NCBI GenBank assembly: GCA_973895155.1
Contig: OZ316894.1
Coordinates: forward strand, 15,864,699 to 15,928,698
Direction of reading: 5' to 3'
DNA: 64,000 bases
Source: Marsupella aquatica
Lineage: Eukaryota > Plantae > Marchantiophyta
The translations under genes were made by a program, and so were the position numbers. Of this stretch, positions 37,304 to 60,242 are shown piece after piece (positions within the stretch are counted from its first letter, which is position 1; each line of letters begins with the position of its first letter). Under the pieces are notes generated by a model, which ran no database searches, was not told where the DNA came from, and saw nothing but the letters and a program-made list of their open reading frames with translations.

Positions 37304-40300
37304 CTTGGTGTCTCACACAGGGTGACTTCTTCAACTGCCTCGAACCTGAGTGATCCTCGAATCATGAAATTGCTGTATCATAATCATTCTGAACTCCATA
37401 TGTGCGGTTTCTCTAATTCGTTCTGCATCCATGGGACAAAGCAATATAATTCTTCTTTTTGACAACGGCTCGTCTAATTGATCTCCATGGTGTATTTACT
37501 GAAATATAGCGAACATCGTGCTCTTGTCATTTCCTCCGAGAGATCTCCATCCAATTATGTGTTCACTAGACTGATCCATTGAGCTGCCTTATTATCCCCC
37601 CTCTCTTTCCTCTCCTTCGTTAGAAAGAGAGATCGAGGGTTCCTTTCTTCACCACCTTCTCTGCCACCTCTTTCTTTAGATAGAGGGTGTCTCTTGGGCT
37701 TCAGAAGGCTCAGATTTTCACTATCCTCTCTAGACCTGACGGAGGCAGTTGGTTTTGGTTTTCCACTCTAGACGGAGTCCACTTTGTGACCCCATAAGTG
37801 GTTTACTCAGGAGCTTTACCAGCTTTTCAGTTCCCCGTCCACCCCCTATGTGGTTTACTTGGGAGCTTTACTAGCTTTTCAGTTCCCTTCCAAGAGGGTG
37901 TTAGTCTACCTGGCTACTTTTATGTTCCATTATTTCATAAAAAAATTAAGGATGAAATCCATGAATCCCCACAAAAAGCCGGACAACAGAAACAAGTAAT
38001 AACATTTGATCCCAAAACCTATGAGTCCCCTACTCAAGTAAGTGACCTGAGCAAGCATCTTTGCTTCTAGTTGTTTTTTGTTCCTTTGTTGTTGTGGGGG
38101 CCTAAACTTCTTGGCTTGTTGGGCCTCTTAGGTGAGTGTGCTCCCTGAGCAAGCAACTTGGTACCTCTAGCATATCCGACAATAACCTTCATACAAAGTC
38201 GCACTTGCTCCCTAATATGACCATCGCTTAACGGTCCTCACTGTTTACACAAGCAACTAGACACCTTGGTAAGTAACCTCATAGGATCTAGGAACTCCAA
38301 AACTAGTCTCTAGACTCAAGCTCAACAAAGATTGGTAAGTAAATCACTGAGTAGAACCTCTTGAGTTTGCATGGCCTTGCCATAAGCCGAAGCCAGACCT
38401 AACACCCATTGTTCTTACATAACAGCCCCTCTACAGGTTCTGCCCGTGCTTCCCCAATTCCTATTTGTTACTAGATGATTGTCTTGCCCCAAGGATACGC
38501 TCATGGCCCAAATAAGCTAGCTTGTCCCAAAGCTTGTCTTTAATGTTGGGACCAGTTGGCCCTGACTCTAGTAACCATCCCTAAGGTTCACCCAACTAAG
38601 AATCTAGGGGCCAACTGCACTTGGGCCTCAACACTCGTGTCTACTCTGCATTGTCTCCCCAACGCAAGCTCCCTTGGGAAATTGAACGCGGTTTGGCTGC
38701 TGCTTTGGCAGAATTTGGCAAGCGGGCAAGATAGCCCTCACAAACCTCGAGACTCAAAGGCACTCCAAGACCCAGCTAAGCTCAGAATGATGTACTCCTT
38801 CTCAAGAGCTTTCCAATGCATCCAAGAAGTCCTCCAATGGACTTCTCATTGAGAAATTATTGTCATTTTCGTTTGGTGTTTTGCCTTAGTGTTGCGACTG
38901 CTGCAATTCACAACTTGGGTTCGCCCTCCCCCAGGGAGACACCACTCCTATCATATATATTTATGGAGATCTTCCACCCTTGAACATGCTTTGGTCCCCT
39001 ATATGTAGCCCTCAACCTGGACTCCAACCTGCACGCATGGATATGCAACTAACTTGCTATATATGTTACGTAACTTTCTAGCTAGACGCCCATAAGTGGA
39101 ATGTCTTAGCCCATTGTGATTGGGCCAACCTAGTGCTCATGCCTAAGTAGGCCCTCAGAACCCGTTGTCAATTGGGGACCTAGACAGCCACACCTGGGCC
39201 GCGCCTTATCTCATGCGCCAAACATCCATAATTGCGCATGAAGTAAACTTCATTAGCATTGGGCCCAAGAGGAGCTCTCATTCAAGCCCTCAAAACTCCA
39301 AGTCCGTACGGGGGTCTGGACGGTCCACCATGAGCCCGGCCCTTCCCATGACCCAACCAGCTCCAAGCTAGTCTAAGTCCTTAGTGTGCGTCACCAGCTT
39401 AGCGCCTTGCCCTTGCTAGTGCAACACCTCATTGCCCACTAGTCTCCCCATACTTAGTCCCCACCGGATGTCCGTTCCAAAGGCATGGACCATAAAGGAG
39501 CTCGACATCAGAGTCAGCAACATTGGAGCTAAGTGTTAGGGTAATCAAGTTCCGCAACTCTTTTCCTCTTCCCTCCCTTTATTGGATTGTTTTGCCTTTG
39601 GGACCATGTCTCCTAGTTTGACATTTTTGTCTTTTGGCATTGTGATAAATAGATCAGTTCTAATCTGCTATATTACATGGGCTTGTCCCCTAGGGAAGCT
39701 GCGGCGCATCCTTAGTATGTTTTTGTGTTTGTGTGCCCCAGATGTAAACTGATCAGGGAAATCCCTCATGGTCACATTATTTGTCTAGTCCAAACTTCAG
39801 GCATGAAATCACTTTGTTTAGTCAAAAACATTAGTGGTGACTCACTCAAAGCTACCATTTGTTAATTAATTAAGGACTAAGTCTCTCTTAAAGCTATCAA
39901 TGTTAATTAGTGACTAGCAATAATAGTGCACAAGAACACTAGTAGACTAATACTAGTAGTGCATTGAATCTAAGCAACATTAGGGGAACACTAAGGATTG
40001 AGTATCATTAGGGTAATAGTAAGTTTTTCGGTGCATGGCAACACTATTTACGGACCCCCATTAGAGGTCCTTTCCAAAATTCCTGGCTCCACAGCGCGCC
40101 ACCTCATCATGGCACTCAGCAAACAAGAAGAGACTTGTTTTTGGATAAAATTAACTTCTACATTCGTGTTTGTGGCAACTTTGCTGTAAAAACTGGGACG
40201 CCATGCCGTAAAAAAGAATGTAAAAAAAACTAACATGCAAATCAAAAGACAAAAAAGTTGAGGTAAAACTGCTCCTAGTAACAGTTTTATTTTCATTTTG

Positions 40301-40928: not shown

Positions 40929-42072
40929 GTTGTTGCAGTACAGGTGCTCTGCAATTTGGATGAAACTGTAGTCTAGCTCAAGGGTTATTCGCTATTTAGA
41001 AAGATTCATACTCAGCGACCAGACAAGCAATTACCTGTTTGCTGTGTTACTTAGGGGTTGACATTTCTTCAATAGTGAAAGATTAAAAACCTATGTAATC
41101 CACGTGGTCAAGGCCCATGGTCATGCTCATTGCCCACTTAACAACTGACATAACTGATAAGTCATTTGTGTTAAAACAAATTCAATTCCACACTCAACTA
41201 TGTATTTTAGCAGCTGGCAATGTTAAGTTCTAGATCTCTAGATCTGACATCATATCTGCTAGTTCACTTAAGTAATAATGCAAATTCCTTCTCCTAGCAA
41301 CTCCTCATACTTCAAACAAAACTCCTACATTCCTATCCTGCTGATCCAATGAAATTGATGGTGCCCACTTGAAAAGAAACATGTACATTAGCTTGAGATG
41401 ACACCAAGAAGTCCACAAAGCTTTCCTCCTGCAGTTTTTGTTCTTGAGATGTGAACCGGGAGCCCTGAACCTCTTCCGTAGTTTAGGGTTTAACCTTGCA
41501 AAACCCGCTCCTTACCCCAAAGTAACATTTATTCTCTCGATTGAAAAATCTCCTTTCCACTATATGTACTCCTTATAAACAAACCAAAACACCATCCCAT
41601 TAGAAGATATAGTCAAGCACTGCCCGCCCCTGCTCCAACAGAAGGAAAAGAAAAACAAAAGGTATTCAACAAATAAAATATAGAAAATATTACAAAACCC
41701 AAAAGTATCCCACCCCATCGTGTCCTTTTTAATTTGCCGCATCAAAACACTGTGGCCCTCCACCACGACCCACCCCAATGGATAGAAAAACAAATAATAT
41801 ATAAACAGAGAAACTCACACGGGCATCACCACCGAGACAGGAAACAGGAAAACAGGAACCTGTACCATGAATGTTTTGAAGTTTTGAGCCCACATTTTAG
41901 CGAAAGGTAACACTTGATCGGGTTCCTTACAACAACTAAATGCAGTCACTTCTCCACCACATATACATAAACCATCGAGTGGGTCCCACCATACACTGGC
42001 TGCTGATACGAAACACACTCGAAATGTTACTTATCTTAAAAATATCATCGGAATCGGAACTGTATTCTATAA

Positions 42073-45000
42073 TATCGCTAGGTGCTAACAAAAAAACAAA
42101 CCAAGATTTCTAGCCCATTTAAATAAACTTCTTGCAAAAATACTTACTAGTGTAAGAGTTTAGATGAGAAGAATTTCCATTCCCAGAATGTTAAGAAACG
42201 GAAATTTTGGTGGCAAACACAAGTACTTTAAAGCATCCATCCGGCCCATGAAATGAAAGAGATTCACTCAGAACGGGACAAACTTATGCTAGCGCTGGGC
42301 GCTAGCCATATATATTAACCAAATGTGATCGTTGAAAAGAAATGAAACGTTGCACATGCGACAAATGAGGTTGGAGCCGTTCAACGTTACTAAATCTCTA
42401 GTCTATAAGTTTAGAGAATTCTGCCTAGCTAGAATGAGCCTCACCTCACCTACAGTCAAAATTGGCTGACTAGCCAAAGTTGAATCCACGACATCTAGTT
42501 TGAGGACGTTGGTATAAACCCAATATAGATGCTTGCAAGGCATGAAAGGCTGTCCATGAGAATGGTGACGATAGAAGTCCTCACAAGAACAGTAGGGGAA
42601 AATACAAATCTGCACCCAGTAAGTGTTTGTCGTACGAAGTTTCTCTTGGGTCTGGATCTGAAATTGTTTGCCCCAGGAGTTTCCGATTGAAACATCAAAC
42701 TGTTGAATCAGTGTCATCGGCTCCTTGTTTGCAGATTCAATTCTTTTGTTGTGTCCTTGTGAAAGATTTGAACGTGGGACTGTATTTTTACCATTCCTAC
42801 TCCGAAGGCGGATATTTGGCTCCAGGAGATTGATTTTCTCAGGGAAAACATTCACATTGATTCGCAAGTCAAATGGAGATGGAGGAGCCTGACGTCCGGC
42901 CTCTGGATTGATCGCAATCCCTTGCTGAGATAGGAATTGGACCTCAGCTTCCGAAAGATTTGTGCCCTTCAAAACGGGCAGGGTATGAGGAAACAGGGGA
43001 AGATTCACCACATTACGATGGGGCCGACTCTTATAGCATGCATTATTGGGACAGAACCAAATCATCTCAGGATGTGGTTCTCTCCTGAACATGCGGTATC
43101 CTTTGACAACAATGCCAACTACACCATCCGTTGACGGGTAACCAACCTTTTTCAGACGATTTCGACATTCATCTCGATCCGATTTACCACCAAGAGATCC
43201 ATTACATTGAGGCCCTGCACCATGTTTCGTCACTCTTCGCAGGTGCCAAGCACCTGGTCGCACATCTGTCTCCAACACAAATGAATCATGGACAACCCTT
43301 TGGAGGTTCGGAGGTGCACTATGCAGCGCTACAGAAGACCTTGTCACCCTCCTCCACGATGGAGTACTCCAATGACAGCCTTCTTTGATTTCGCTCTCCG
43401 ACAGATCCACAACGCCAATGTTATCGTGAACAGGTCCCTCTGCATTCGGGGAGAATTTGGTCTTGTTTAAGTTTTTCCTCTTCATGCCTCGAGTATTTGG
43501 TGATGTTACAAGAATAGTGTCATGCCGATGGGAGTCTTGTGCCGAGATGTTCCCAGAGGCTTGACCTTTCCTCTTCATAGACTTTGTTGTAACATCCCCA
43601 TTGAGTGGACCACTCCTTTCCAGGTCGAATTCAGCCGCACCGGAAAGAAGCATATTGGAAGCATCTTGGAAAAGTTTTGAAGAACCTGCCTGGTCCACCG
43701 AACGGAATGCCAATTCCCAAATTGTAGGTCCGGTTCCTCGGTGAAGACCTCTCTTATACGCCGTGTATGCTGCAACTTGTGAGACACCCCTGTTTTGGTC
43801 CATCTCACATGCTTCGAATAGGCCAGCCTTTTTCTTAGTTTGCCAAGCCTTCATTATGGAATGCGCCGCCTCTGAAGTAGTACAGTTAGGAATCATAGCG
43901 CTTTCCTCCACGCTTTTGTTCTGCATCCACCATAGGAGCAGAGTTTAGGAAATATGAATTAGCCACATGTACATAAAATCAATGACAGCGCCTGGCGCTA
44001 GCAACATTCAAACTAAAATTTTGTAAATTTAAGAAACAAGTGGTCCATTAATACTAGCATCGGGCGCTAGTATCAAAAACCAGATAATGATGAACAAAAC
44101 CTACGAGACCACACTAACTGAAAATAATGGTAGCGCCAAGCGCTAGTATGAGTTCGAGTGGTTACTGGATGTTGAAACTCACCAAACGAATGAAATTTCC
44201 CCATTGATGCCATCGGACCACCCACCACGCCAACCAACCTTGGAGCATTCAAAGCTTCCCTGGAACACAATTCCCAGATCTCCACCATACATCGATATCC
44301 CTTGAAATTCTGTACGCTCCAAGAAATGTGGACGCGTTCCTTAAAGAGTCCCACATCTTCCGATGCTCATCTCGTTTTTCTTCCAATACACCTTCAATCG
44401 AGTGACGATGAAACGATTGATAGAAGTGAAACGCATCCGATCGCTCCTTTTCTGGGTTAGGATGTCCTCCGAAAAACACATTCCGAACAGCATTCCATCC
44501 AGCTTGGGCATTGTCAGCCATGAATCCATGGATCACAACATTATCCAACCCATTTTCATGGCAAACCTCAATCATCAATTTCCAGGCTTTCTCTAAAGAC
44601 TCTGAATCTTTTGCTTTCAACTCACATGTGAAAATTGTGCAAAGAGCACGATAATTGTGATCATAAACATGTGCGCTAAAAGTTATCCAATATTTTGTCA
44701 TCCTCCTCATCACATCAAAACTGACCCATGCCCCTTCCAATGGACCTCCAGGCTGCATTTGGTGCAACAAATCAACTCCAGATCCGTGCCCTTTTACAGT
44801 CATTTTGAAAATATGTGGCCTATCCTCTTTACAGCCTTGACCTGGGAGCATGTAACGTTGTAGAAAGGGAAAGATTATGCATTTATGCATTTCAACAAGA
44901 AACTCCAACTCACCTTTGCCTTTTTGGTCTTGCCGAACGCTTCGAAAAAGAGATGCAAACTTTTGAGGGGTCGAAACTACCATTAACGACTCCCAAATTT

Positions 45001-48000
45001 CTCTTTCCTCCAATTCACCAATGTCATTGTTGGACACACAAAGAGCCTTCCTTAAAGATCCAGTTATAGCGTTCTTCAGACCCGATGGTGTGGCACACGG
45101 CGTAGCTTCATGTTGTTTCTTTATGAAGTTGTGAGCAATCTTTTCACCACCACGAGAAAAAACTTTTTGACTGGGATGAGCATGAGTTCCGACATGCACA
45201 GCAAGACGGGACATATGCTTACAAGTATCCTCGTCTAGAAGTAGTTGAGGGTACATATAAAAAAGCATTGCAGGACATGCTTCAGTACAAAAGGGTAATT
45301 GTTGGCAATAGTGACAAATTACGCCACCCTTGTCAATCATCTTTCCTACGGTATGTGGCCCCGCGAGTTTGGGTGTCCCATCCCAAGCTTTACAATTTCT
45401 TCATTTCTTCCACAAAAGATAATCACACTTCTGATTCTGACATTCTAGTGCTCCTGTGCACGTCACTTTACCAAATTCCCAGAACTTTTTTGGTTGTACA
45501 TTCGCAGAGGTTGGAAATATTCGAGTCCAGAAGTAGTAGTCTTTCGGCCGATCCATGTCACGGAGTCTTGAACCTTTTGAAAGAAGACCTTCTGCGGGAG
45601 GCAATTCAAATACAACGTTTCCATTGTATTTTCTTGGGAGGCAATTCACCTGCTCATGCCTGAAATCACATGTTCGGATGAATCGCGACAGTTCACTATG
45701 GCCAGTTGATTTGAGAATAGCATCCATCGCGCTTCGACGGTAGACAATACCTCCCGCAACACCCCCCACAACGTGTGTCTCCGCAACACCCCCCGCAACG
45801 TGTGTCTCGGAAGGAAACTGACCTTCCATCTTGACCAAAGTTCCCGGATTGGGCGATTTTTGCGAATGAATGGCAACATCCTCCTCATCACTATCGGAAA
45901 GGTGAATGACTGGAACCAGATGAATTTCATTCGTAACGGAATTATCTCGAAGATTGATATAGTATCTCTTCCCAGCGTTCAATTGCCAAAATCTGACTCC
46001 ATCGTCGATATCAAACAATGCGTCACCAGCCTCATCTCCAGAAGCATCAACAGGTTTGATGGAAAGAATGTCATTGATGCCAATGTCAAATCTTCTACAA
46101 AGATAGTTCTCACTAACCTGTTTGTATGTATCGAAAGAACCTAAAGGAATGCGTATAATCTCTCCAGTTCCAGAACGCAGAAGCACAACTGAATTAGACA
46201 TTGCGGAACAATAATCCCGAATTGACAAACAGAGAAAATGAGAGAATAGGAGAACATAACCCGACTTAAGTTAAGTTAATTTGTAACAAACTCCAGAAGA
46301 TTATCGTTTGTGAACGACAAAACGGGTACTAGTCGTAAAATGTAGAAACATAAATGTCGTTTATCATTTTGCCAACGTCACTACGTACTGGTAACATCAA
46401 TAATATAGTTTGAGAAACATGATCAGATATTTACTAGCGCCCGGCGCTACCATAAATAAGTCATGGAATTAAAACCTAAAAACCAAACTTCATATGCTAG
46501 CGCCAGGCGCTATCATTAATCCACTTCCATTTAAAGGTGAAAACTCTATTAATTTTATTGGAATAACAAAAATGTCAAAAGACATTGAGTTTGTTTGATA
46601 TAATTGTTGTTTATAGGAAATATACACGTATCAAATATAGTTAGCGCCCGGCGCTGACATAATTTCATGGCTGACATCAGTGTTAATGATGTTATTTTAG
46701 TGGTTTTTGAATGCTATGCCTGGCGCTAGTATCCAAAGGAATGACTTGTATTATCCCAACGGTTATATCTAACGGTAAAGTGCATGAACGTACTCATTGT
46801 TTCACGCTTTTTGTAGTTGACTTATTTAACAAAAGCCTACGGATCATCGCTCCTCCCTTACCCTAGTTAAAAAGAGGCGTTACATATACTCATTCTAAAC
46901 AGTATCGGCCACTTGTCCTTGTCATGATTGGTGAGTGAGATCCCTTTCTTCCGCATCGATCTACCTCCCATGATGTCAACCGCCCAAGTTTTAAAGGTTT
47001 CCTGCTTGTTCTTTTTGTACGGTAATTTGTTCAGAGCATGAGAATAGACACTGGCTCTGTGTCGTACAAGCACCTTCGCAAACTTTGGGGCTCCACGATG
47101 CAACCTTCAAGCGCTCCAAGCTCTCCAAGAGGGTATACCACGGTTCCGGAGGGAGATCAGGGTCATTGCAAGAGTACACAATCTTCATTCTCTGGGGCAT
47201 TCTATTCGCGTCGTGTTACAAGATCGAGCGGAGCGATTCCTTCGTCAAACATAACACTCCCAAGCCAGAAGGGGCAGAATGGAGATTGATGGCATGACCG
47301 ATTACGCTTTGGGAGAGGGCAACAAGGTAGGACTTGGAATGGATGAAGTCATCTCCAAACACATCATGTCGTTTGGGAAAGATTTCCGGGGGAATGAGAA
47401 GGAACCTCCACGGATTCCGCTTTATCGCCTGGTCCACATGGAGGTTGTTCGGACGTTACAGAAGGAGAATGCATCAATTGAGAAATTGAAAGACTCATTC
47501 CAAAGTAGTGGATACAATCCTAGGATAGGAATGCAGTTTTTTGTACAGCCGACTGATTCGGATGGTGTGGAGCAAATCTGCACTGAAGAGATCAGGGAGA
47601 GTTGGGATGCAATTTGGGTTGCTGAGAACGAGAAGTTTGAGCTGGAGTGCGAGGCAGATCCTGCCTTTATGATCTTGAAAGACAAAATGTTCTCAGTGTT
47701 CGACGGGAATCATCGACTTTACTCGTGGACGATGGTCACAAAGGAAAATCCCGACAACGTCAAGTATCATCCCAGAGTTCTCTGCACAATTTTCAAGGGT
47801 GACAAAGCTTTGCAAATTCAGATTGAGGCGGCTATGCACACTGTGAACCAGTACGTTTTTTGCCCTAACTTGTAATTAACGATTTCCGCAATACTTAGTT
47901 ATTACATAAATACAGTGTTTATGGAGTGTTTATAGAATAATATAGTGTTTATAGGCTAATTGAGTGTTTAAGTTAAGCTAGCGCCCGGCGCTAATAACTG

Positions 48001-50312
48001 AAAACCTGGCCTATTGCAGGTTAGGGCAGGCCGTTGTTGAACCGTCGTGGATCCTTGACGCAGACAGAATCCGGAGGATTCTTTCTCACGATCTAGAGCA
48101 CTACAAGTCTATCATTGACAGCGCCAATTATGCAAAGTTTGAGTATATCAAACAGAAGACTCAAAAACATTCTTGGTACACAAGAAAAATGCCTCTGGAA
48201 GCTCTAGTCTATATTTTATGCGAAAACAAAATTAAAGCTTACACTAACCAGTTCAAGATGGACATGGCACTGGCAGCAAGTCAAGGCAATCCTTGGTCGG
48301 CTGATGACATCACAAAGCGGCAATCGCTCATGTTGAAAGAGTCTACTAAAGATTGGTCCACGAAAACATCCAAAATCACTCCTCTTCTTAGTCCTGAGTT
48401 TGAAGATTTTCTAGGTACCTGTGCAGAGATGTATGTTTTGACAGAGAAAAACAAGCGAGAGAAAAAACCAGATTCGGTTGTTTGCACTATGGACCGTGCC
48501 AGACTCTTCACTGCAGTTTCGGCGCTTGATCCAAAATTGAGGTGTACATTGCTCGTTGCTCACTGTACTCCAGAGTTGAGAAAACAATTCTTCCACCCTT
48601 CGAGTGTGAACGATGATCCAGTGAAGCAGTACGTGGTGCCACACATGGCAAACATGGAATACCGTCGAGGGAATTGCAATTGGGATGCTACACTCGGCAA
48701 TTTCCACAGTGATTGAAACGCTACCGGTTGATAGGCTTGCCCAGTCAGGGTGTGACTCGGTAGAAAATCTGATTGAAGTAATTTCAAGTGAATTTCGAAG
48801 GTATGGGGATCTTGTGAAGGCAAAGTTCTTCAACACCATGTGGCCATCAAGATACCCTGATAAAGAGGTATATACCGAGAAAAATCAGAAGAGGGCCAAG
48901 AGGTATTTGTATCGTTTCTACATTTGAATGGAAATTCATTCCCCGGATGCTCTTTGGGCGTATCCAGCCGCATTTCACAAGTGGATTACTGTAAAGGAGG
49001 GAGATCTTGTTTGTGACTTATACTCGATGTATCCTGCCGAGGGTAAACTACCCCCAAGGGAAATGTCCGAGTGGGAAAGAATTCACTGCCCATGGTACCT
49101 TGACACAGACAAGTGGGATTCACCCTTTGATGAAGTGGAGAAGGATTGGTTTCTGAAACTTGCAAAGTCACAGATCCTTCCCAACATTGTTTCTGAGATG
49201 AAGCAAGGTCTCCTTAGCGACATTGATAAATCTTCTACGGAGTTACAGACAATCTGTGAGACAGTAGTTGTCCATGTAGATAGGAGCCGCAAGCCATGAG
49301 GGAAAGTTAAAATAGACACTGCAGTGCCAAGTGCCTCCACGCGATCCAGAAAGAAACGTAAGTTTTCAATCTTTTTTTCAAATGTTTGCTAGCGCCCGGC
49401 ACTGCCATTCTTGTGTTTCAATCTTCATCAGTGTTTGCTTGAAGGCCCTAATCCCACATTCTTTGCAATATGTTCATAGGTCAAAAGAAGTCAGATGCAG
49501 ATGGCATAGATGATACGAAGGTTACCCCAAAAGCTTCAAAAGCAAATACTGGCGCTTTGCCAGATCCACTTACACCAGTTAATTCTGGGAAATCGATTGT
49601 CCCAGTCGATGCAACCAGTACAAAAAAGAAAAGCAGAAGGACTCGAGATGTTGGACAATCAGAACGGGATTCTCAAGCTGTCACTGGGCTCCAACGTGAT
49701 GTTGGGGATTTTAAAGCCAAGTCGTCTCGTCATTGTTTCGTTGAGACCAGTGTCAGTGAACTTGTGGACAGTGTGTTTAATAAGGAGGAGAAGCCGGAAT
49801 GGGTAAATGATGCCGAAAAGTGGGGGAAAAACCTGATCAAATCTGGATGCCGGCTGAAAGGAGTGGTGAGGGGTGGGAAGCAAAGACCTTTTGGTGTTGA
49901 CGCTGGTTTTATTTACTTGCCAACTGGGCTAAAACCGACTTTGCTTGACAGAAAGGTCCCTAAATGGAACGTCCCCGACTGTACCCTACCCCGATCCTTT
50001 TTCCGGGCAATGGATCCTTTTTTGTCGGATGACGGAATTATTGCGATACTCCATACGAGGGAGTATGATCAAATTTCGCAGGTCATCTCCGCTTGTCAAG
50101 AGTCCAAGAAATTCCAGTGTCTATGTACACATAATGTCGTCATGGGGTTCCCAATGTACAAAGCGAAGTCTGATTTACAGGTAATTTTGTTGATCCTTTT
50201 GCTAGCGCCAGGCGCTATTCATATTATGTATTACTTTCTTTTTTTATTTGACCTTATTTCAGGTAAACTATTCAACGTGATTTTTTGGATTATTTGCTAG
50301 CGTCCGGCGCTA
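42073..50312. repeat. Dispersed 15-bp palindrome TAGCGCC-N-GGCGCTA, 12-13 copies
   Basis: Starts at 42073 (degenerate), 42290, 43986, 44055, 44131, 46435, 46498, 46642, 46714, 47979, 49390, 50203 and 50298. Perfect copies are at 46435, 46498, 47979 and 50203. Confidence 0.92.
42403..46201 (-). pseudogene. MULE-type DDE transposase with an N-terminal GCM/WRKY-like Zn domain and a C-terminal SWIM finger (~1178 aa reconstructed)
   Basis: Exons 44183-46201 and 42403-43920 (GT-AG intron 43921-44182), with in-frame TGA at 45401 and 44249. GCM-like CTGALECQNQKC...CHYC...CP...GTHAHP; catalytic WVSFD, GFMADNAQAGWNAV..F...DAFHFYQS and TTSEAAH; SWIM YWVQI...CSCEDF...PCKHLYWV. Confidence 0.8.
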
Positions 50313-50690
50313 TTGTAATCTGAGGGTCCTTCCTCTATTTTGTTCCCTTTTCAGGTATTCACTTTACGTTTGGATGTATTTTCGCGGATATCATCCAAGG
50401 TGAAAGTCCCAAAAGATCCTAAGTTCAAACCCCTTTCAAAAACAGAGGATCCTTCCATTACAAATCTGATTGGACTTCCCTTCGCGAAGGTTGATACAAC
50501 TCCAGAGCTTGAATTTGCCGGGAATGCCAGACTACATCCAGGATTCATGCAGTCTGTGTTGGAACTAATTACGTGTCCAAGAGATATTGTTCTGGATTGG
50601 GCTGTAGGTTCGGGGAGTACATTTGTTGCAGGTGATAATTGTGGTCAATTTGTAATTGGACTCGAGAATAGGAAGGAGTTTGGAGTTTGA
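47279..50690 (+). pseudogene. ParB/Srx-like domain fused to a beta-class N4/N6 DNA amino-methyltransferase-like domain
   Basis: Exons 47279-47850, 48020-49357, 49480-50180 and 50355-50690 (GT-AG, phase compatible), with a frameshift at ~48670 and TGA at 48927 and 49299. ParB-like: RIPLYRL...VR....SIEKLKDSFQSSGY and FSVFDGNHRL. MTase-like: VDAGFIYLPTG (motif IV position), FFRAMDPFLSDDGIIAI and LHPGFMQSVLELITCPRDIVLDWAVGSGSTFVAG..CGQFVIGLE (motifs X-I-II). Confidence 0.72.
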
Positions 50691-50700
50691 GCCAAGCAAA

Positions 50701-52462
50701 CATAACATTGATGTTATGCACATTGAAAAGAATATTTGTGAGAGTCTACTCAGATTCTTGTGTGGAGAGAAAGACACTGGTTCAGTGAGATCTTGAACAA
50801 AGGGGAATGAAACCCCATCTTTGGTTGAGGCCACATGCCCACAGAGCTGATGTGCTCTTGAAGTACCAAGCGCCCTATGTTATGACAGACACAGAGTGGG
50901 AACTATTTGTGCAGAGGTTGAGTTCTTTGAAGGTTCCTTCAAACTATGGCAGTGCTTTCAAGAAGCATATCATGACTAGAAAGCTTGGTAGTATGAAAAG
51001 CCATGACTACCATATGTTGATGCAACAGGTGTTGCCTTTATGCCTGAGGGGCCTGTTGCAGAAGCCTGTTCGTACTGTGATCATGCGACTCAGTGATGTG
51101 TTTCGTCGTATTTGTGTGAAGGTTTGGGATGAAACACACTTCCCACAACTGACAGAAGATGTCGCTCAGGTGCTGTGTGACCTGGAGATTTATTTTCCTC
51201 CCGCATTTTTTGATGTCATGACCCACCTACTTGTCCATGTTGTGGAAGAGCTACACCAATTTGGGCCTGTGAGTGCTCGTTGGTTGTACCCTTTGGAACG
51301 GTACATGGAGCTACTCAAAGGTCACGTGAGAACATATTACAAACCTGAAGCAAGCATGGCTAAAGGTTACATCAAGGATGAGACTCTGGGATTTCTGACC
51401 GAATACATAGCACAATATGAGCATGTGAAGACCAGGGTGTGGAATTCTGATGAGGAGGAAGGGGTGATAGGTGAAGTACTGGAAGGGGCTGCAACCACAA
51501 AGAACCTGACCATATCTATGAGAGACTTGGCACATGACTTTGTATTGCACAACACTGTGGTGATGGAACCCTGGATACAGTGAGTGCATACATGTGCTAT
51601 AATCCAGTTCATGAGCTTAAATGTTGTGTTCGTGTGGTTTTCTCCTTCAGCCTGTTCATGTTTACCCAAGCTAATGCTGTGTGGTTGTTCGTTCAGGGAG
51701 TATGAGTCATTGAAGGCGACCCATCCCACTGCAGGAACAACTTTTCCAGGTTTCATGGAGTGGATCAGAGTGGCAATTAGAGAGCATCACGAGACCCACC
51801 CAAACATGGATGCAGATGTTTACCTACTGTCTAATGCCCCTAGCCTGAAAGTGAAGACTTACAAACGGATGAGAGCATATGGGAATCACTTCCGAGTGAA
51901 GGATGGTGACAGTGCCTACAGGGTGACGAATGACTGCGGGCTCATCACTGTATTTGAGCAACAGAGCCACAATCACGACAGGGCCTGGATGGAGATGGGA
52001 TATGTGGGAGAATTAGTTGACATATGGGCTCTGGACTATGGGGCGGTGTCCAGTCCTGTGATTCTTATGAAAGGTTCATGGGTGCGGCAGGATTGGCTTG
52101 GTAACAGGGCTACCATGAAGAGAGACAACGACGGTTTCTTGCTGGCCAATTTCAGAGGGAAATTGCCCGAATGGTCTGAGCCATTTGTGTTTCCTAGTCA
52201 GGTGGAGCAAGCTTTCTTCCTGGATGTGGAAGACTCCCCAGGTTGGCGTGTAGTGTGTCATAAACAGGCCAGGCAACGTCGGATGGAAGGATCAAACCTT
52301 GAGTTTCATTTACACTCTCATAGTGCCTTTGATCGTCGGCGTTCAGACCAAGTGCCTGTAGTTCATGATAGCGGGGACTTCATTCTTGTGACAAGGGTAG
52401 ATGCATTTGCTGAAGGAGGCAAATTCAGAGATGCAGATGCCAACAGTGTGCCTGTGCCATGA
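50701..52462 (+). pseudogene. 5'-truncated CACTA/EnSpm TnpD transposase (DUF4218 and DUF4216 regions)
   Basis: HNIDVMHIEKN at 50701; KSHDYHMLMQQ.LP; FPPAFFDVMTHLLVH..GPV..RW.YP.ERYM..LK..VR...PEASMAKGY; intron 51580-51696; YVG.L.DIW.LDY...EPFVFPSQVEQAFF. Frameshift at ~50790. Confidence 0.92.
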
Positions 52463-52618
52463 GTAATGTGAATTGTTTGCATGGACATTAGTGAGGGGAA
52501 GGATGTGTAATAAAGTAATTCTGAAGCAACACAGATGTATGGATGGATGCCTGGTGATTGTGGTTGCATTGTGTTATACGGGGTGACCATAGATGACATG
52601 TTTTTGTGGTCCAATAGG

Positions 52619-55600
52619 ATGGAACAGAGTGACACAGAGATGTGTGAGTATGAAAGGAAAACTATGGAACAACGAGCATACGTGAAAGCCAAAATCGCAG
52701 AACTGGATCTGGAAAAGGATGTGGCTGAATTGTAAGGGAACGATTCTCAACTACACCCCTCCTCTGAGTTTGTGTGACATGAATAGTTCAATGTGGCACT
52801 GAAATTGTGACTGTATTCTCATATTGGAATGTCGCAGAGCCACAGCATTTTCAAAGAAACAAAAGGAGTACGCAAGAAGGGTGACCAGCACTATCTCTGG
52901 GCCTGTGCGTCAGAGTGACAGGTTGAGCAAGAAGGTCGTACCTACAATGGCAGAATGTGGAGATGACATTGATGCTGCACAGGTGGGTGCAGACACTAGA
53001 CAAGAAGATGCAGATGATGAGTATTTTCCAGAGGAAATGGATGAGGATGGGGGTTATGAAGATGAATACATTGCAGAGCAGCCCCAAAAGAAACATGTAA
53101 GTAGTTTTCCCAACAAGGTTTTGAGTTAAAAACTCTTGTTTAGAGGTTTCATATGTTCAGTACTACACATATGTACCTTGCTTAGTTCCTGACATTGTAG
53201 TTGGTGATGTGATGCAGCGTCCTGCCAGTTCTGTTTTGCCTTCGAAGCCTGTGCATGCACCATACCAGCAGGGGGGCTGACCTCTGATCAAGGTTGGCAA
53301 GGTGGTAGTAGTGGTAGATCCCAGGCTGGTGCCCAATACTATGGCAGGGGGCAAGCTCTAGGTTATGCCCGTGGTAGAGGCAGAGCAGGTCCAAACCCAC
53401 AATCTCGTGGGTATGGACGTCCACCTCAACCATGGGGATGTGAGTATATATCTATATGCCAGTTCTTTGTGAAGGCATGGCACTCCTGAATTTCAGACTG
53501 CATATCAATTTTTGACATTGTTTGGGATGTATTGGATTCAGACAACATGAAATTCTGTCCACCTGCCATTGCATGCAGATTCTGCCCAACCTGATTGGGC
53601 AAATGCTAGTAATGATCAGTTCCAATGTCCACAAGGACAGACATGGGTTGAACCAGGTTGGGAGGATGGTGGTGGGTCGTGGAATGAACAAGGTTGGGAA
53701 GGTGGTGAAGGTAATTGGCAGGGATATCAAAATTCAGTACCTACAAACGCTGGAAGAGGAGCAGGTAATGTCTGATCTTGTCAGCAATGGAAGAACTCAT
53801 TATATGTGGAGTCCATTCACGTGGGGGGGACTCTGCACATGTATAATGATAGAAAATGTATGTGTGCAGGTTGGACAGTCGAACCATCGACTCAAGTATT
53901 CACAATGCCCCTATGCAGATGCAGCACGGAAGGGGGATAGGTATGTCGGTGAATGTTCAGTTGTTTTCCTACAGTTTGTACTTAGTTTTCAGTACATATG
54001 TTTGCACACACATACCTAGAAAGTGACATCATCCGGCCCCTGTACTAGGCTGGACAGGTGGTCCAGGGTCGCAACAATTTCAGAGTGCAGTCCCTGCACA
54101 GGCATCTACAGGCAGAGCTACAGGTATGTATGTTTGAAGAATTTTTCTTGAAGTGAAGCATTGAATGTTGCCGTCATCCATTCTTCTATATGTAGTTCTC
54201 AAGCATGAATGGCATTGTATTTTCCCAGGTGGCTTCAGAACCCCAGGTAGGGTGAATGAAGGGGTGGCCAATACAACGCCCAGTACTACCGAGAGCAGTG
54301 CACGAGGGGAGGTGACAAAGAAAGGGAACGTAAAGTTGAATGAGAGACAATGGGTGGATGCTGAGTGTCCTCGCAAGAACCGATAGCATGCTGATTTGAA
54401 AGCTGAAGTATTGCGTTGGTTAGATGTGAGTGTTATTAATTTTAAAAAACAGCATCCAAAAGATTGGAAGACTGTATGTGAAAATATTGCTGCCAAATGG
54501 AATTATGTGGGTAGTGATGATGGCGTGGACATAGGTTGCCTAGAGAGTACAGCAGGTAAAATTATCAAGCAAGAGAGGTGGAGAATGCATAAGGCTTGGA
54601 AGGAAGGTGGGGAGAAGCCAGATATGCCTCCACCAGCCAGTTGTGATGATAAAGTGTGGGCAAGGTTAGTAGCTTATTTTGTAACAGATGCTTCAAAAAA
54701 GAAGAGTTCACAGATGACCGAGGCCAGGTTGAGTGTTCAGAACCCTAATCTGACAGGAAGGACCGGCACTGCACCGACAGCTAAACGTTTGGTAAGAATG
54801 AATGGCCTAGCTATGTAATTTATGCTACACTATGTACTATTTTTTAGTGTAAACCCATACATGTAAACTTTGTTTTTTAGTGTACGTTCCCTGAATATTG
54901 ATCGATAACTTGTGTTTGCCATGCATGTGCAGAAAGCCCAATTGGGGCAAAGCCCTTCAAAAGAAGAGTTGAGGGCTGAAATTGTGAACACCCGGGCTCA
55001 AGAGGGTGCATCTGAATCCTCCAAGCATGTAAGTTATATGAGTTCTGATTGGTAATTGAATGACCTGCGTTGAATTTCAGGTGTACACTGTATATAACAT
55101 TGATTGTGCATATATTGCCCAACATTTCATATGGAGTGATTGAACCTATACCCCTGTGTCATGTAGGGAGGTGGATCTTCACTTACAGAGATAAGTGGTC
55201 GTTTGAAGGCTGTCGAAACATGTCTTCCAGAGATCAATGAACGTTTGAATTCATTGACTGACTTGTTCCATGTGAACTTCAAGACATTAATGGAAGCTGT
55301 TGTGTCGGTGAGAGATAAAATTGATTCCAATTCTACAGGAGTTCCACCATCACCACTTGAGGTGGCAAAGTCGATGCACTCTTCTGGCATGCCAACGACA
55401 TGTAGGCTTGAAGGTAAGGCCTTTACAATTGTGTGGGATATGATTATTAAATGTATAGTTTGAATTGACATTGTTTGTTGAATGTGTTATTTTCAGTAAC
55501 ATATATTGTGGTTGTTGTGTCCATAGAGAATAAGACAGGTGCTACAGAGAAGAAGTATGAGAACCTGGCAAATACTCGCTGTAATTTAGAGGCAACAAAG

Positions 55601-56323
55601 TTGCAGTCTGTACAAGCAACTTGTTTGACAGAGGGCAGTCAACCATGTTTGGATGAGGATGACATTGGCAAGGGAGTGGATGATATCAATGTTGGGGCAA
55701 ATGAGGATATCAGCAAGCATGACAATGATACCATTGAGCCAGATTCATGCTATGTAGATCTTGACTCCATTGCAGAGATAAATGATTTGCAGAATGTATC
55801 ATTCTCAATGACAGGTGTGCCTCTTGTTGAGATAAATCCAACCAAAGAGTTAGTTGGTATGACACTCCCAGGTGATGAACCTGCTACTGTGACAGTCCTA
55901 ACAAAGGAACCTACTGAGCCTAGCTTCACTACTGTGAAGAGAGGAAGCATGCGCACACGAAACAAGTCTGCTGGTGGGAGCAGAGCCACGTCAAAGGTTT
56001 CATACAAACCTCCAAGAACAGTGCTGGCAGAAAGATCTAAGGTGGAAGTGGGGAAAGCACCTAATGCCGAGGGACAAAGTGGCTTGTTAGCTGTTGATGA
56101 GAGTGGAACACGAGTAGGATTTGCCAGAGTGCAGGTTGGTTCCACAACGTTCCATGGCAAGAGGATTCCCCCAGGTTATTCAGTAGTGTTAGTCACATTA
56201 CTAGTGAAACCTAAAGCTGTCCTTCCCATTCCAAACACAAATGATGATCCTCCTCAAAAGACACTTGGAGATGCTGCAGGTTCTTTGGTATTATGGCCAA
56301 GCAAGTTCATAGAGGATCCATAA
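52619..56323 (+). pseudogene. CACTA TnpA-like multi-exon ORF2
   Basis: Ptta/En/Spm-like segment (PPASCDDKVWARLVAYFVT...KKKSSQMTEAR....NLTGRTG, 54396-54791) and a C-terminal FHGKRIPPGYSVVLV...LPIP.....TLGDA.GSLVLWP typical of EnSpm ORF2. There is an in-frame TAG at 54386. Confidence 0.75.
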
Positions 56324-56824
56324 CAATGTCATGCCATTATTTGTTTGTAGTGTGAGTCATGTTATGTAGATTTTAGATGTCAAGAAGCAGTACAAGAATC
56401 ATGTCCTCTTGGAGATTCATAGTATCATGCATGTGCTTTCAGTTATCTCATCCTACAGTCATCAATTATGAGTTCCTGTTTTGTCTAAATTACATTGATC
56501 ACATTGTAAACTATTCCATTGGAATTCAAATGATCTTCATTTTTTAGCAAGATTGTGATTGTGTTTAATTCTTATGAATGTTTTATGTAGGATCTGCTTA
56601 TATGATGCTTTGTTTCATGTGGATGTCATTCATGCTATGTTCATTTCTTGTATTCAATGTGTTATATTTCTAAAGTTAGAACATCAGGTTTCTATGTATT
56701 GTAATGTCGAGTGCTCTCTCTCCTTATGAACTGTCCCTCTGTGTTCATTAGTCATGGTTATAACTTGCATGTGAACCTTATTAGTTATAAACATGAGTAT
56801 ATAGAGTCCCAAATGGTTCTGTTG

Positions 56825-57150
56825 TGTGACGCGGGCTAGGGTCTCCATTGGTCTCTCCTGTGACACTAAATAGTCACACGCTAGTCGTTGTTGAATGCGG
56901 GTAAGTCATGTATGTGACTTACGATGTGACTCGCTGAAGTCATATTGCAGTCACGTCGAAACAAGGCTAGACTCCACAATAAAGTCACAGATCAGTCACA
57001 AATGGGTATCAAGCAAGTTGCAAAGCCCAGTATCAATAGTGACTTCCATTTTTTGGTCTCAACTTTTGTAACTCCAAGGGTCACAGCGTGGGTCAAGTCA
57101 CATTGAGTCACAATGAAGTCACATGAGCCAAAATGAGTCATATATTGCGG
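56825..57150. repeat. CACTA-type subterminal repeat field (GTCAC/GTGAC motif)
   Basis: More than 12 GTCAC/GTGAC/GTCAT motifs in both orientations, downstream of the TnpA-like gene. No TIR follows. Confidence 0.65.
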
Positions 57151-57175
57151 TCTCAGTTCACCTCGGATTCTTCTA

Positions 57176-59392
57176 GTGAAGGCAGGGCTGAGTGTGGAGG
57201 ACGCAGAGAGAGTAGTCCCACTCCTCCAAACGCTGATTGATGCCTCTCGGCGTGAGGCAGAGAAGACAGCTGCTGCAAGCATTGCAAGTGAGAAGGAGGC
57301 AAAGAAGAGGAAGAAAGAGGCAAAGAGAGGCAAGGGGGATGCAGAGGAGACACTGTCTCCAAGAAAACGAGAGAAAAAACTTTGAAAAGAAGCTAGGGCA
57401 ATTGAGAAGGTGCGATTGGAGGAGCAGAGGCAAAAGGAGGCAGAGAGAGCTCTCAGGCCTGAGCTAGCTCTCAATTCGGGTGGTGATCCATTGCCTAAGA
57501 GCTACCATCTATTCCGAAGCCAATTCAAGCAGGTGCTGAGGGCCAATTTGGGGCCATTGGATTACTGGGGCAAGAAGGAGGAAGAGAGATTGAGAATCAG
57601 AGAGCAGGTGAAGGAACGGTTCAGGAACGGGGCCTACATTGATGACAGGTTCCTAAACAAATGAATTTCAGCATCACTCTCAGACATGCGCAATCATCAG
57701 CGAGAGAAATTCAGAAAGTACCTTGGAGATATGGCAGTGGATGCAGAGGTGATCAGGGAGGAGGGTTGTCCAGACGATGTTTCCCCGGATGAGTGGGCGG
57801 CTTGGCTTGAGGAGGAACTCTCAGTCCGTGCCTGGCTGAAAAGAAGACATTGGGACAACGAAATTAGGCTGGCAGAGGAGAAGCGAAAGGCTGGGGAGAA
57901 TGTTGATATCCTCCCCCTTCAACAGAACCTGCAACAATGGGCAGCTCAGGCAGCAAGACTCCCCAAACCACCAAGGCACATCATAGCAACATTGGAGAGA
58001 GTGCAGGGGAGGCCAACCATCACTCACCGGATGGGGCAAGGCGGCTCCAATTGATTGAAGGCTGAGTTTGTAAGTGCCCTCCCTCTCCTCCCCACCTCGA
58101 CTCCCTGATCACCTGACTCCTCGCATGAAGAATGAGTTGTTTGTGCCTTATGTCTTTTGTTTAAACCCTTTGCAAAACTCATTTTTGCTCTCGGGCCTGT
58201 TCTTTCCGATACTCATCCGATAGGTTTTGCATCGGAAGCAGCATCGGACACCGTGTCATGCCATTTTTCTTGTTACGCATCCGATAGACGTCCAATGCAG
58301 GCTGTATCGGACTTTGCATCGGACCCCTCGGCAAAACATTTAAATTTTTGAATGAATGTACTTAACGTTAATTTTTTACTAGGGTAGAGTATAAGTTAGG
58401 GTGAACTATGGTTTAAGGTTACATTAGGGCTATGTAGGGTGGCTTGGTTTAGGGTAGGGCACGCTAATACTAGATTTGATATTAACCTGGCCTCTATGGT
58501 TTGGATCTTTAAATTTCAGGAGCGGGAGTATGGTCGCCCTATTGCGCCATTGGAGAGGAATTTGGCAAAGACGGATGGACCCCGTGCTCTAAAGCGCCAC
58601 CTTGAGGATGAGTTGGGAGAGGTAAGTGTTCACCCTAGGGTGATATAATGTTTAAGGTTGTCATGAATTTGTTAGAGTTATGGTCGGGACCATTCATTCT
58701 AACTGCAATTAAACCCTATTGCGCAGGATGAGGAGGGGTCTGGGTTGGAGGAGTTGGACTCAGATTCTGAGCAGGATGCTGAGGCAGGGTTGGGGAGGGT
58801 GCTCACAGTCACCCCTACTCCTCAGGTCCGAGGTGTCGTTGCCCCATCAGCAGGGAGGGGTGGGTCACATGCTGCTGATGGTGTGGGCTCCCATCGCTCT
58901 GGAGCATCACGGGGTGCGGGGCCCAGGCACTCAGGGGGTAGTAGAGGTGATGGCATGGGACGAGGCGACCGCGTAGGAGTATCTGGTGCAGGTGGCCCTT
59001 CCCGACGAGGTAGTGGCGACGTGCCGGATGGTGGATCTAGAGGGCGCGCACCATCTCGTGAGTCTGGTGGGAGTACAGCACGACATGGGCCACCCACAGG
59101 ATCTGTCGGCGCACCATCCCATCACTCTAGCAGGTCTGCGGGAGGAGCTGAGGCGTCCTTTCACTCTGCCGTGTCAGGGGTTGGTGGGACATCTACCTTG
59201 CCTGACCACCCTAGCGGTGCATCTAGTGGGTCAGGGTCTAGGCCTGCATCAGGCCAACCCATGCCATCTGGTGAGCAGGTGGCTGCCACGGTCGTGGGCA
59301 GCCAGAGGGAGGAGGGCTCTCATGATGCTAGACCTGTACCCACCCTTCGTTCTTGCCCAAAGAAGAAGAAGGGACGCAACACACCTTTTTAG
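57176..59392 (+). pseudogene. Second, GC-rich CACTA ORF2/TnpA-like gene fragment from a different family
   Basis: One frame with TGA stops at 57385, 57664 and 58054: FKQVLRANLG...CPDDVSPDEWAAWLEE...THRMGQGG. It is followed by spliced exons (~58520-58621 and ~58727-59392) ending in a Gly/Ser-rich tail. Confidence 0.6.
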
Positions 59393-59729
59393 AGGTTAGT
59401 TGCATTTAGGTGGCCGGGTATCTAGTGCTAGACAGCTTTGATTAAAAGCTCACTAGGAGGTACCTTGTATATAGCTCAGTGTAGTCTCTAGTCAAAGCTC
59501 TCTTTACATCTTCTATCGTGCCATCACGACCAGGATGGGTCTACCCAGTAGGCCTAATCCATTTTGTACATATTGGGGTGATCCCCTTTTTGAATATGAT
59601 ATTTTGACCTCGTGTTTATAGCATTATCTTTGGTTCCTAATTGGTGTATGTCACCTTCAACCCTAAACCAATACCCAAACCCCCAAAAAACCACCCATGA
59701 AACCCTGTATTCCACCCCCAGAACATTTG

Positions 59730-60242
59730 ATAATCCGTTGCAAGTCCGTTACCATCCGTATCGGTAATATAGCAGTGTCCGATGCTGCTGCCTTCGAACT
59801 TTCCCATCCCCAACGCATCGGACCCCTCCTTCAAGGTTCCCATCTTAAATATATCGGATAGTCCGATACAAAAACTAACGCACTTTCCGTTATTATAAAT
59901 AACGCAATGTCCGATACAAATTACTTCGCAAATTGCCATATCAAATATATCGGACATCCCGATTTAAATAGTATCGGACATAGGAAATCGTCGTGTGCCG
60001 TCGCGTGTTAGTTATCCGATTCATTTTACATCGGACATAAAATATCCGTAACACGTTACAACGGAACGTCCGTTATCCAAAATATCGGAAAGTCCGATGG
60101 AAGTCCGATGGTCGATATGCGATGGTTTACGCATCGCAAAGTGCGTTGGGAATTGCATCGGATGATAGAAATTTTTGCATCAATTTTCCTGAAGGGATCC
60201 GATGTAAATCCTATCGAATAAAGGCCCGAAAATGTACTAGTG
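59730..60242 (+). mobile_element. Right terminus of a CACTA element: TCCGAT/ATCGGA subterminal repeats and TIR
   Basis: About 20 TCCGAT/ATCGGA-like motifs ending in AAAATGTACTAGTG (reverse complement CACTAGTACATTTT) at 60242. The same motif forms a cluster at 58200-58325. Confidence 0.85.

Follow-up and report, generated by a model that had tools for sequence, protein, structure and literature searches.

A 64-kb stretch of the genome of the liverwort Marsupella aquatica (contig OZ316894.1; all 64,000 nucleotides are hereafter called the window) carries at 41821–50682 the decayed copy of a repeated DNA transposon that is truncated on the right: its left end is kept and its right end is lost. 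Within the remaining ~8.9 kb (~75% coding, ~25% non-coding), a likely Mutator-like transposase gene on the minus strand and an accessory gene on the plus strand lie head to head in one multi-copy element, and a 15-base palindrome recurs in the introns of both genes and in the spacer between them. This layout had been described in an initial annotation of the stretch and is indeed present, here with exon structures and motif counts. The accessory protein is predicted to combine an N-terminal ParB/sulfiredoxin fold with a C-terminal beta-class amino-methyltransferase fold. We propose, with a probability of about 0.45, that this protein binds the palindromes and coats its own element against host silencing by 5-methylcytosine (5mC), in the manner of VANDAL/VANC.

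The repeat status of the element was judged from contigs of four public sequencing runs aligned to the window (X1, X3, X5 and X6), which represent at most four studies and three organism labels, and one of which may be the window's own source. Contig depth is not copy number, and the per-run figures hold among the contigs listed. Near 41.8 kb, contig depth rises from 1–3 to ~90–200 in X5 and from ~50–100 to thousands in X1. A depth-108 X5 contig begins at 41821 and a low-depth X1 contig stops at 41848, which places the start of the repeat near 41821 instead of at 42070, the boundary drawn initially. In X5, seven of the eight contigs listed (depth 89–108) tile 41821–50076 across both genes and the spacer, with a flank depth of 1–3; the eighth sits on the adjoining CACTA element. 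The spacer itself is bridged by an X5 contig of depth 96 (46214–47141), which reaches into the 5' coding part of the accessory gene, and contigs of X1, X3 and X6 likewise cover both genes and the spacer. A depth step marks the CACTA junction and none lies between the transposase and the accessory gene; the even depth over both genes and the spacer therefore supports a single unit.

At its right side, the window jumps at 50682 into the middle of a CACTA transposase, at a depth step with loose contig ends, while X4 and X5 copies carry other sequence beyond this point that would complete the last helix of the methylase. Since the family copies continue where the window switches to CACTA, the right end of the element has been deleted, and the junction is likely a deletion that took one end of each element. 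The methylase gene had been read as ending at its own stop at 50690; it is cut instead at 50682 by the junction. No inverted arm matching the left terminus and no target-site duplication was found within the 64-kb window; Mutator-like elements have terminal inverted repeats, except in their non-TIR group, and a duplication of 8–11 bases.

The transposase gene has two exons and encodes 1178 amino acids with two in-frame stops. The accessory gene has four exons and three GT-AG introns, and its product of 1059 amino acids contains an X at each of four breaks (two frameshifts and two stops). None of the six public runs that contain the stretch is recorded as RNA; the splicing proposed for both genes is predicted from GT-AG sites, and that of the accessory gene also from collinearity with a Riccia protein (P0157, see below). 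The accessory gene probably starts at 47038, because copies in three of four runs have eight extra bases at 47266. The gene distance of ~1.1 kb given initially thus holds to the open ParB frame at 47279 (1.08 kb) and shrinks to 0.84 kb at the likely true start. The frameshifts of the accessory gene are missing from some or most copies in the other runs; the family has therefore had intact members, and the copy in the window has decayed.

The palindrome, TAGCGCC-N-GGCGCTA, occurs in the 64-kb window in four perfect copies, in nine with at most one mismatch and in 11 with at most two, and all 11 fall between 42290 and 50312. Among 10 Markov-shuffled windows searched with up to two mismatches, nine had no copy and the other had one. 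All 11 copies lie in non-coding sequence, which makes up ~25% of the element (chance ~2e-7): three in the transposase intron, three in the spacer, one, one and two in accessory introns 1, 2 and 3, and one after the transposase stop. Each of the four introns of the two genes thus contains the motif. Further degenerate palindromes are found at 42073 and 46714, and the mismatch at 50303 is missing from the majority of X4 and X5 copies.

A metagenome scan gave 56 pattern matches and a single related locus, a 2-kb contig (L001) that is 66% identical to the window in the best transposase segment. At the same position of the transposase, L001 has an intron with three longer palindromes, which share a 14-base core without the central base. 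The motif therefore outlasts the surrounding intron sequence. Even depth, the motif in introns of both genes and its variant in the same intron of this relative together support the three-part unit of transposase, accessory protein and sites that had been suggested from the sequence alone. RNA folding of four palindrome copies was unremarkable in all four (z –0.4 to –1.9), leaving a role as an RNA hairpin unsupported, and the occurrence of palindromes in the spacer speaks for a site in DNA. A viral contig scan retained none of 27 candidates; one isolated exact palindrome in viral contigs was treated as chance, as was one short match in a genome-contig scan.

Predicted domains of the two proteins

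The N-terminal domain of the accessory protein was modelled at a predicted local distance difference test score (pLDDT) of 91. In a structure comparison against 48161 chains, all 11 chains with Z ≥2 were of ParB/sulfiredoxin type, with KorB as the best match (Z 7.0, root mean square deviation 3.0 over 95 residues); we take Atu1540, SspE and Osa to be members of this superfamily. The top Foldseek rows agree, at weak E-values of 0.02–0.2. On this model, the N-terminus of the accessory protein is predicted to have a ParB/sulfiredoxin fold, as had been proposed for the cargo protein.

Accessory exon 1 encodes a DGNHR motif (47702–47716) that is conserved among 98 aligned relatives (G 90/96, N 95/96, H 90/96, R 84/95), together with an upstream Arg (78/90) and a terminal Asn (65/79). 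We take these to be the nucleotide-binding boxes of ParB, with DGNHR as a GxxR-type motif; because the motif residues are conserved, retained nucleotide binding by this domain is proposed. A match to the DGQHR domain is weak (E 0.069). An index-free search with exon 1 returned 201 representatives at E ≤0.001, and a word-index search for longer proteins, with the ParB exon as query, yielded none from 161 candidates. The ParB-like profile matched no PDB sequence, and a search of 301 genomes from a single bacterial phylum, run without a positive control, did not find it either.

Of 29 relatives looked up, 12 are from Riccia sorocarpa and eight from Adiantum, and none bears an algal name. In Riccia, 17 gene models (cluster members included) lie on at least seven scaffold sizes, the multiplicity one would expect of a gene carried by a transposon. 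A quick tree of 125 rows, from which rows with <110 aligned residues were left out, groups the window with 12 labelled Riccia rows, apart from six labelled Adiantum rows (support 99); of two further Riccia proteins named later, one falls outside the window/Riccia group. The tree also holds a third clade of the ParB-like domain, of 40 rows (P0057, P0069, P0070 and P0101 among them). All five of its proteins that were looked up derive from metagenome or Logan contigs, and the clade may, as a guess, come from another plant lineage such as mosses.

Riccia P0157 (1207 amino acids) is collinear with all four accessory exons (26% identity over 1052 columns, E 2e-78), and the region of exon 2 is 26–29% identical to it. 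ParB and N4/N6-type methylase domains thus occur together in one protein of the ~1100-residue class, with 1059 residues up to the cut in the window and 1207 in P0157. UniRef names P0157, P0155 and P0158 'Trimethylguanosine synthase', apparently an automatic misnaming of the methylase fold. A homodimer prediction for P0157 residues 150–640, run without an alignment, was uninformative (score 0.00). Among the open reading frames of the remaining element, whose right part is lost, no ParA ATPase partner was found.

Pfam scans of the accessory protein returned N6_N4_Mtase only, on the C-terminus and just under the cut-off (E 1.4e-5), and exon 4 matched PDB 5hfj (E 4e-4). The S-adenosylmethionine (SAM)-binding motif I, LDWAVGSGST, and the acidic motif II, GLE, align with M1.HpyAVI, and the SAM-binding motifs are intact in both the window and Riccia. 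The Riccia domain, modelled at low confidence (pLDDT 48), was matched by Foldseek to M1.HpyAVI (E 1.6e-10), followed by BceJIV, CcrM, MboIIA, RsrI, N4CMT (E 4e-7) and PvuII. Motif IV precedes motif I, a permuted order found together with a beta-class fold, the fold being judged on the Riccia relative. These matches uphold the methylase fold suggested initially: the accessory C-terminus is predicted to have a beta-class amino-methyltransferase fold.

The catalytic motif IV has drifted. Set against the pattern (D/N/S)-P-P-(Y/F/W) or its DLPY variant, the window reads YLPT, and six plant relatives read DLPT, DMPS, DMPT, DLPT, DFPI and DVPF, so that the aromatic residue is kept in one of seven plant rows. 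X4 shows no majority change that would turn the first residue of the window motif into Asp, Asn or Ser. The plant methylase profile finds a phage methylase with the motif DLPY at E 1.9e-11. In canonical enzymes of this kind, motif IV is SPPY, DPPY or DPPW (bioRxiv 10.1101/2021.02.12.428880, PMC8885841). Given the degenerate motif IV (YLPT; DLPT in Riccia), the writing of N4-methylcytosine (4mC) or N6-methyladenine (6mA) is doubtful. The idea that the element 'marks or coats' its own DNA is accordingly weakened in its first half, and the second half fits better. The annotated relatives may be decayed copies themselves. Among 19 listed differences in the methylase exons, seven are synonymous and 12 non-synonymous; this sorting is uninformative because decay of the window's own copy and divergence of the family are mixed in it.

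The catalytic-type residues of the transposase are D496, D563, D589-x-x-H592 and E690. The signature of Mutator-like elements (MULEs) and IS256 is a DDE triad with C/DxxH after the second Asp, and the window transposase has both. The first Asp, the second Asp and the motif His are kept in 9/9 aligned rows, and the Glu in both rows that reach exon 2. The transposase core is 50–54% identical to four proteins (4 of 1561 candidates; a second search gave 7 of 122), and exon 2 is 44% identical to L001 over 246 columns. No Pfam, NCBIfam, PHROG or PDB profile recognizes the transposase, and Pfam is also blank for seven relatives. A 9-row transposase profile compared with 12 IS256 proteins gave E 0.0011 and a probability of 20% (reversed control, E 0.34), in an alignment that runs from the second Asp through the D/CxxH motif into the helices that come next. 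The Cys/His pattern of exon 1 is conserved in six aligned rows and lacks a library or PDB match; we presume the region to be of GCM type. The SWIM match has E 0.058, with CxC...CxH present.

Mutator transposases are described with a zinc finger, a catalytic core and a SWIM domain in this order, their WRKY-GCM1 domains being DNA-binding (PMC1702500), and the presumed zinc finger, the core and the SWIM-like finger of the present protein follow the same order. From its sequence, the transposase is likely Mutator-like. The initial label of a GCM-DDE-SWIM MULE transposase holds for the catalytic residues and is backed by the weak IS256 profile; the Pfam MULE and GCM parts remain without a match, and SWIM stands at E 0.058. 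Exon 1 also contains a 27-base tandem duplication (45754–45807), at which X3, X5 and X6 copies show a joint going back; the number of units varies between copies.

CpG content and the role of the accessory protein

The CpG/GpC ratio is 311/368 in the element, compared with 216/450 in the adjacent CACTA element (p 6e-7) and 1039/1951 in the flanks (p 1e-7); in exons only, it is 237/274 versus 43/139. This CpG excess fits a family history with less CG methylation.

We hypothesize that the palindrome, being two-fold symmetric, is read by a dimer, and that it is bound by the accessory protein rather than by the transposase. The ParB domain would still bind nucleotide and may close and spread as ParB does on parS. 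The methylase half would, in the window family, be a DNA- or SAM-binding module and not an active writer, possibly a reader of the site. The outcome would be anti-silencing in the VANDAL/VANC manner, with host cytosine methylation kept off the element. A more specific form of this proposal, in which a nucleotide-gated ParB clamp works in the plant nucleus, is loaded at the palindromes of the introns, spreads along the transposon and keeps out or undoes cytosine methylation by the host while the methylase fold serves as site reader, is somewhat unlikely.

Several observations weigh against the proposal that the accessory protein coats the element. Among the contigs listed, none carries coding sequence of both main domains, and the linkage of the two genes was judged in the window family, the Riccia and fern relatives being known from proteins alone. 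L001 shows the motif beside the transposase only and is too short to show an accessory gene. Compared at the profile level with 24 bacterial ParB proteins, the accessory protein scored E 0.29 and 0.8 and did not outdo the reversed controls, and no DNA-binding helix-turn-helix was found; the ParB kinship therefore rests on the fold and one motif, with a best Z below 8. On the side of the methylase, the catalytic Asp is kept in 6/6 other plant rows, one fern row has the aromatic residue (DVPF), and one unlisted T-to-G change in X5 could fall on the first codon of motif IV. The CpG retention could also come from a younger family or from codon content, and a single comparison element is a thin control for these counts. 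Finally, a transposase can recognize the motifs of its element and relieve silencing without a helper, as AtMu1 does (bioRxiv 10.64898/2026.08.24.746577).

The accessory protein might instead be an active amino-methyltransferase, guided by its ParB domain, that places 4mC or 6mA within or close to the palindrome and so marks self or blocks host 5mC on those very cytosines. A like idea has been proposed for Ectocarpus (PMC12477816), and the full beta-class fold and motif order, the intact SAM-binding motifs in the window and Riccia, the alignment of motif IV with the phage DLPY-type methylase, the Asp kept in all six non-window plant rows, and the two CG sites and CCNGG core of the palindrome speak for it. 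However, canonical enzymes have SPPY, DPPY or DPPW, the base-stacking aromatic residue is lost in six of seven plant rows, and motif IV begins with Tyr both in the window and in the X4 majority; we regard an active writer as unlikely. It is distinctly unlikely that the palindromes are sites of the transposase's own zinc-finger domain, used for autoregulation or anti-silencing, with the accessory gene doing a separate job. The AtMu1 transposase and Spm TnpA do bind family-specific motifs and cause hypomethylation (bioRxiv 10.64898/2026.08.24.746577), the WRKY-GCM1 domains of Mutator transposases are DNA-binding (PMC1702500), and the motif persists in the transposase intron of the divergent L001. 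Yet AtMu1 and TnpA bind at termini, whereas the first good copy here lies ~470 bases inside the left end, 10 of the 11 copies are internal and four are in accessory gene introns; moreover, in a transposon superfamily of other descent it is a ParB-type gene that has inverted repeats beside it (bioRxiv 10.1101/2025.02.11.637652).

Binding of the palindromes by the accessory protein could also serve mechanics instead of anti-silencing, with a ParB-like clamp compacting or bridging the long element to help its ends pair in transposition. This would suit the conserved ParB-type motif residues, the spread of sites over the whole remaining 8.9 kb and the related accessory genes of giant elements (PMC12477816; bioRxiv 10.1101/2025.02.11.637652), but it leaves the CpG excess and the retained methylase fold unexplained, the sites cluster at the shared promoter region, and we consider it very unlikely. 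Most improbable is that the two genes are separate repeats brought together by nesting or chance, with the palindrome a remnant or an RNA hairpin for splicing: the depth is even across both genes and the spacer, with a clear step at the CACTA junction and none between the genes, the motif is common to introns of both genes and the untranscribed-looking spacer, and folding was unremarkable in all four copies, even if a pair of terminal inverted repeats and a target-site duplication were not found in the window and the element abuts another transposon at 50682.

Feature coordinates and neighbouring sequence

Positions of the element, its parts and the adjoining transposon in the window
Feature	Position	Strand	Description
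Mutator-like transposon remnant (likely)	41821..50682		From contig depth; family copies diverge after 50682
Inferred left terminus	41821..41870	+	Starts GGG; depth change; uncertain by a few bases
Palindrome copy	42290..42304		1 mismatch; downstream of transposase stop
Transposase exon 2	42403..43920	-	505 aa; SEAAH with E690, then a long linker; SWIM-like finger (CxC...CxH) close to the end
Transposase intron	43921..44182	-	GT-AG, phase 0; 3 palindromes; same position in L001
Palindrome copies 43986, 44055, 44131	43986..44145		Transposase intron
Transposase exon 1	44183..46201	-	673 codons; Cys/His-rich region, D496, D563, DxxH 589-592; stops 45401-45403, 44249-44251
Divergent spacer	46202..47037		3 good and 1 degenerate palindrome
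Palindrome copies 46435, 46498, 46642 and degenerate 46714	46435..46728		Spacer
Accessory exon 1	47038..47850	+	Low-complexity start, predicted ParB/sulfiredoxin-fold domain; frameshift near 47266; start inferred
Accessory intron 1	47851..48019	+	169 nt, GT-AG; 1 palindrome
Palindrome copy	47979..47993		Perfect; accessory intron 1
Accessory exon 2	48020..49357	+	Conserved middle region; frameshift near 48629, stops 48925-48927 and 49297-49299
Accessory intron 2	49358..49479	+	122 nt, GT-AG; 1 palindrome
Palindrome copy	49390..49404		2 mismatches; accessory intron 2
Accessory exon 3	49480..50180	+	Basic linker, first half of predicted methylase fold; YLPT at 49914-49925
Accessory intron 3	50181..50354	+	174 nt, GT-AG; 2 palindromes
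Palindrome copies 50203, 50298	50203..50312		Accessory intron 3
Accessory exon 4, cut	50355..50682	+	SAM-binding half of predicted methylase fold (LDWAVGSGST ... GLE)
5'-truncated CACTA/EnSpm element, separate	50683..60242	+	Pfam DUF4218, DUF4216, Transposase_24; ends TAGTG, subterminal repeats

The CACTA element has a short repeat, ATCGGA/TCCGAT, in its right subterminal region (~59740–60210) and in an internal cluster near 58200–58330, and a further broken gene lies inside the CACTA stretch at ~57150–59400. A 41-base, 76% complementary inverted repeat pairs 46859–46899, just upstream of the accessory gene, with 58346–58386 in the AT-rich CACTA interior; it was set aside as a feature of the element, its right arm being inside CACTA, and may be due to chance.

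Elsewhere in the window, Pfam matches mark a DUF3537 plant membrane protein exon (80–751, E 3e-33), exons of a Slowpoke (BK-type) calcium-activated potassium channel (23631–25880, minus strand) and C-terminal exons of a dynein heavy chain (62896–63645, minus strand), the last consistent with a plant that has flagellated sperm. Taken with the tree, the channel and dynein exons by themselves indicate a seed-free land plant, probably a liverwort. A 680-base dispersed repeat is present in two copies that are 79% identical (9775–10449 and 19893–20570). A 361-codon open frame of no clear family on the minus strand (36227–37312), beside a 70-base tandem repeat (36078–36303), is possibly another transposon remnant.

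Comparison with known systems

The novelty supposed in the initial annotation was overrated: an accessory class with ParB and amino-methylase domains, and the idea of self-binding, have been published for brown and red algal transposons. A literature search found no land-plant transposon described with this cargo; Repbase, Iyer et al. 2011 and several supplements lay outside it and could list it. As far as searched, the new aspects are the land-plant range, a Mutator-like host with the fused gene, a defined palindrome in introns that is kept from one family to another, and a conserved ParB motif alongside a drifted methylase motif. The accessory class is thus extended to liverworts and ferns and paired with a Mutator-like transposase, and a candidate site is supplied, namely the 15-base palindrome and its 14-base variant in a relative. 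With a nearly invariant ParB motif and a drifted motif IV, the question moves from the writing of 4mC or 6mA to a ParB clamp on plant chromatin. Liverworts are transformable, and closely related multi-copy families are present in public runs, making binding, spreading and anti-silencing directly testable. If correct, the proposal would add a second, independent mechanism of transposon counter-silencing in land plants and possibly a tool for site-directed epigenome editing.

The accessory system resembles bacterial ParB/parS, Noc and KorB in the predicted N-terminal fold, the GxxR-type motif and dispersed palindromes of similar length. Canonical ParB reads parS through a helix-turn-helix that follows ParB-N, clamps and spreads from the site under the control of CTP, and has a ParA ATPase as partner. 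Unlike them, the accessory protein has no profile match to bacterial ParB and no helix-turn-helix that could be found, and no ParA is present among the open reading frames of the remaining element.

The nearest published protein by description is that of Sola1-1_Ec32 from Ectocarpus, which has 1104 amino acids with ParB-like and N4C/N6A methylase domains, is encoded on the strand opposite the transposase, and has been proposed to bind and modify its own transposon; green and red algal cases are cited in the same account (PMC12477816). The likeness lies in a single ~1100-residue protein with both domains, opposite a transposase. In contrast, Sola1-1_Ec32 is a 21.5-kb element of the Sola-1 superfamily in a brown alga, whereas the present element is from a land plant and has a Mutator-like transposase; the two were compared by description only, and the available portions of that account mention neither a palindrome nor decay of the catalytic motif.

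In red-algal Plavaka elements, the ParB-type gene PAG3 lies beside inverted-repeat arrays, the proposed sites, PAG2 bears PF01555, and homologues are noted in Chondrus Mutator elements (bioRxiv 10.1101/2025.02.11.637652). Plavaka thus likewise has a ParB-type gene with nearby inverted repeats and a PF01555 methylase in one element. There, however, two genes are involved, one joining ParB to a 2OG oxygenase and the other the methylase to SET, unlike the ParB–methylase fusion found here, and the repeats form tandem arrays next to PAG3 instead of single palindromes through all introns and spacers.

Beta-class amino-methylase folds are also known from eukaryotic host genes: Marchantia DN4MT1 and bdelloid N4CMT have the motif SPPY and shown activity, with no ParB fusion mentioned in the portions available (bioRxiv 10.1101/2021.02.12.428880, PMC8885841). 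The link to these 4mC enzymes that had been drawn initially stands at the level of the fold (Foldseek match to N4CMT); the accessory protein is transposon-borne and lacks the SPPY catalytic motif. Kinship to DN4MT1 was rejected on motif grounds alone (SPPY there, YLPT here). ParB-linked methylases have been listed in algae and fungi, with few in land plants (PMC4738411), and methylases in retrotransposons are the topic of two further reports (bioRxiv 10.64898/2026.05.21.726589, PMC5890265).

The present proposal has its closest working model in VANDAL21, presumably a Mutator-like element, and its protein VANC21, where an accessory gene likewise goes together with a short motif that recurs in introns and between genes. 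In Arabidopsis, VANC21 binds short motifs in the introns and in the intergenic and terminal non-coding parts of VANDAL21, and anti-silencing has been shown there (PMC5735166), where it is proposed here. VANC motifs are non-palindromic, 8–9 bases long and multiplied by tandem repeats, in contrast to a 15-base palindrome, and the available text on VANC mentions no ParB or methylase fold. The accessory protein would therefore at most work like VANC and is not classed as one. Should the ParB clamp exist as outlined, liverworts and ferns would host an anti-silencing system of the parS/ParB type that is unrelated to VANC.

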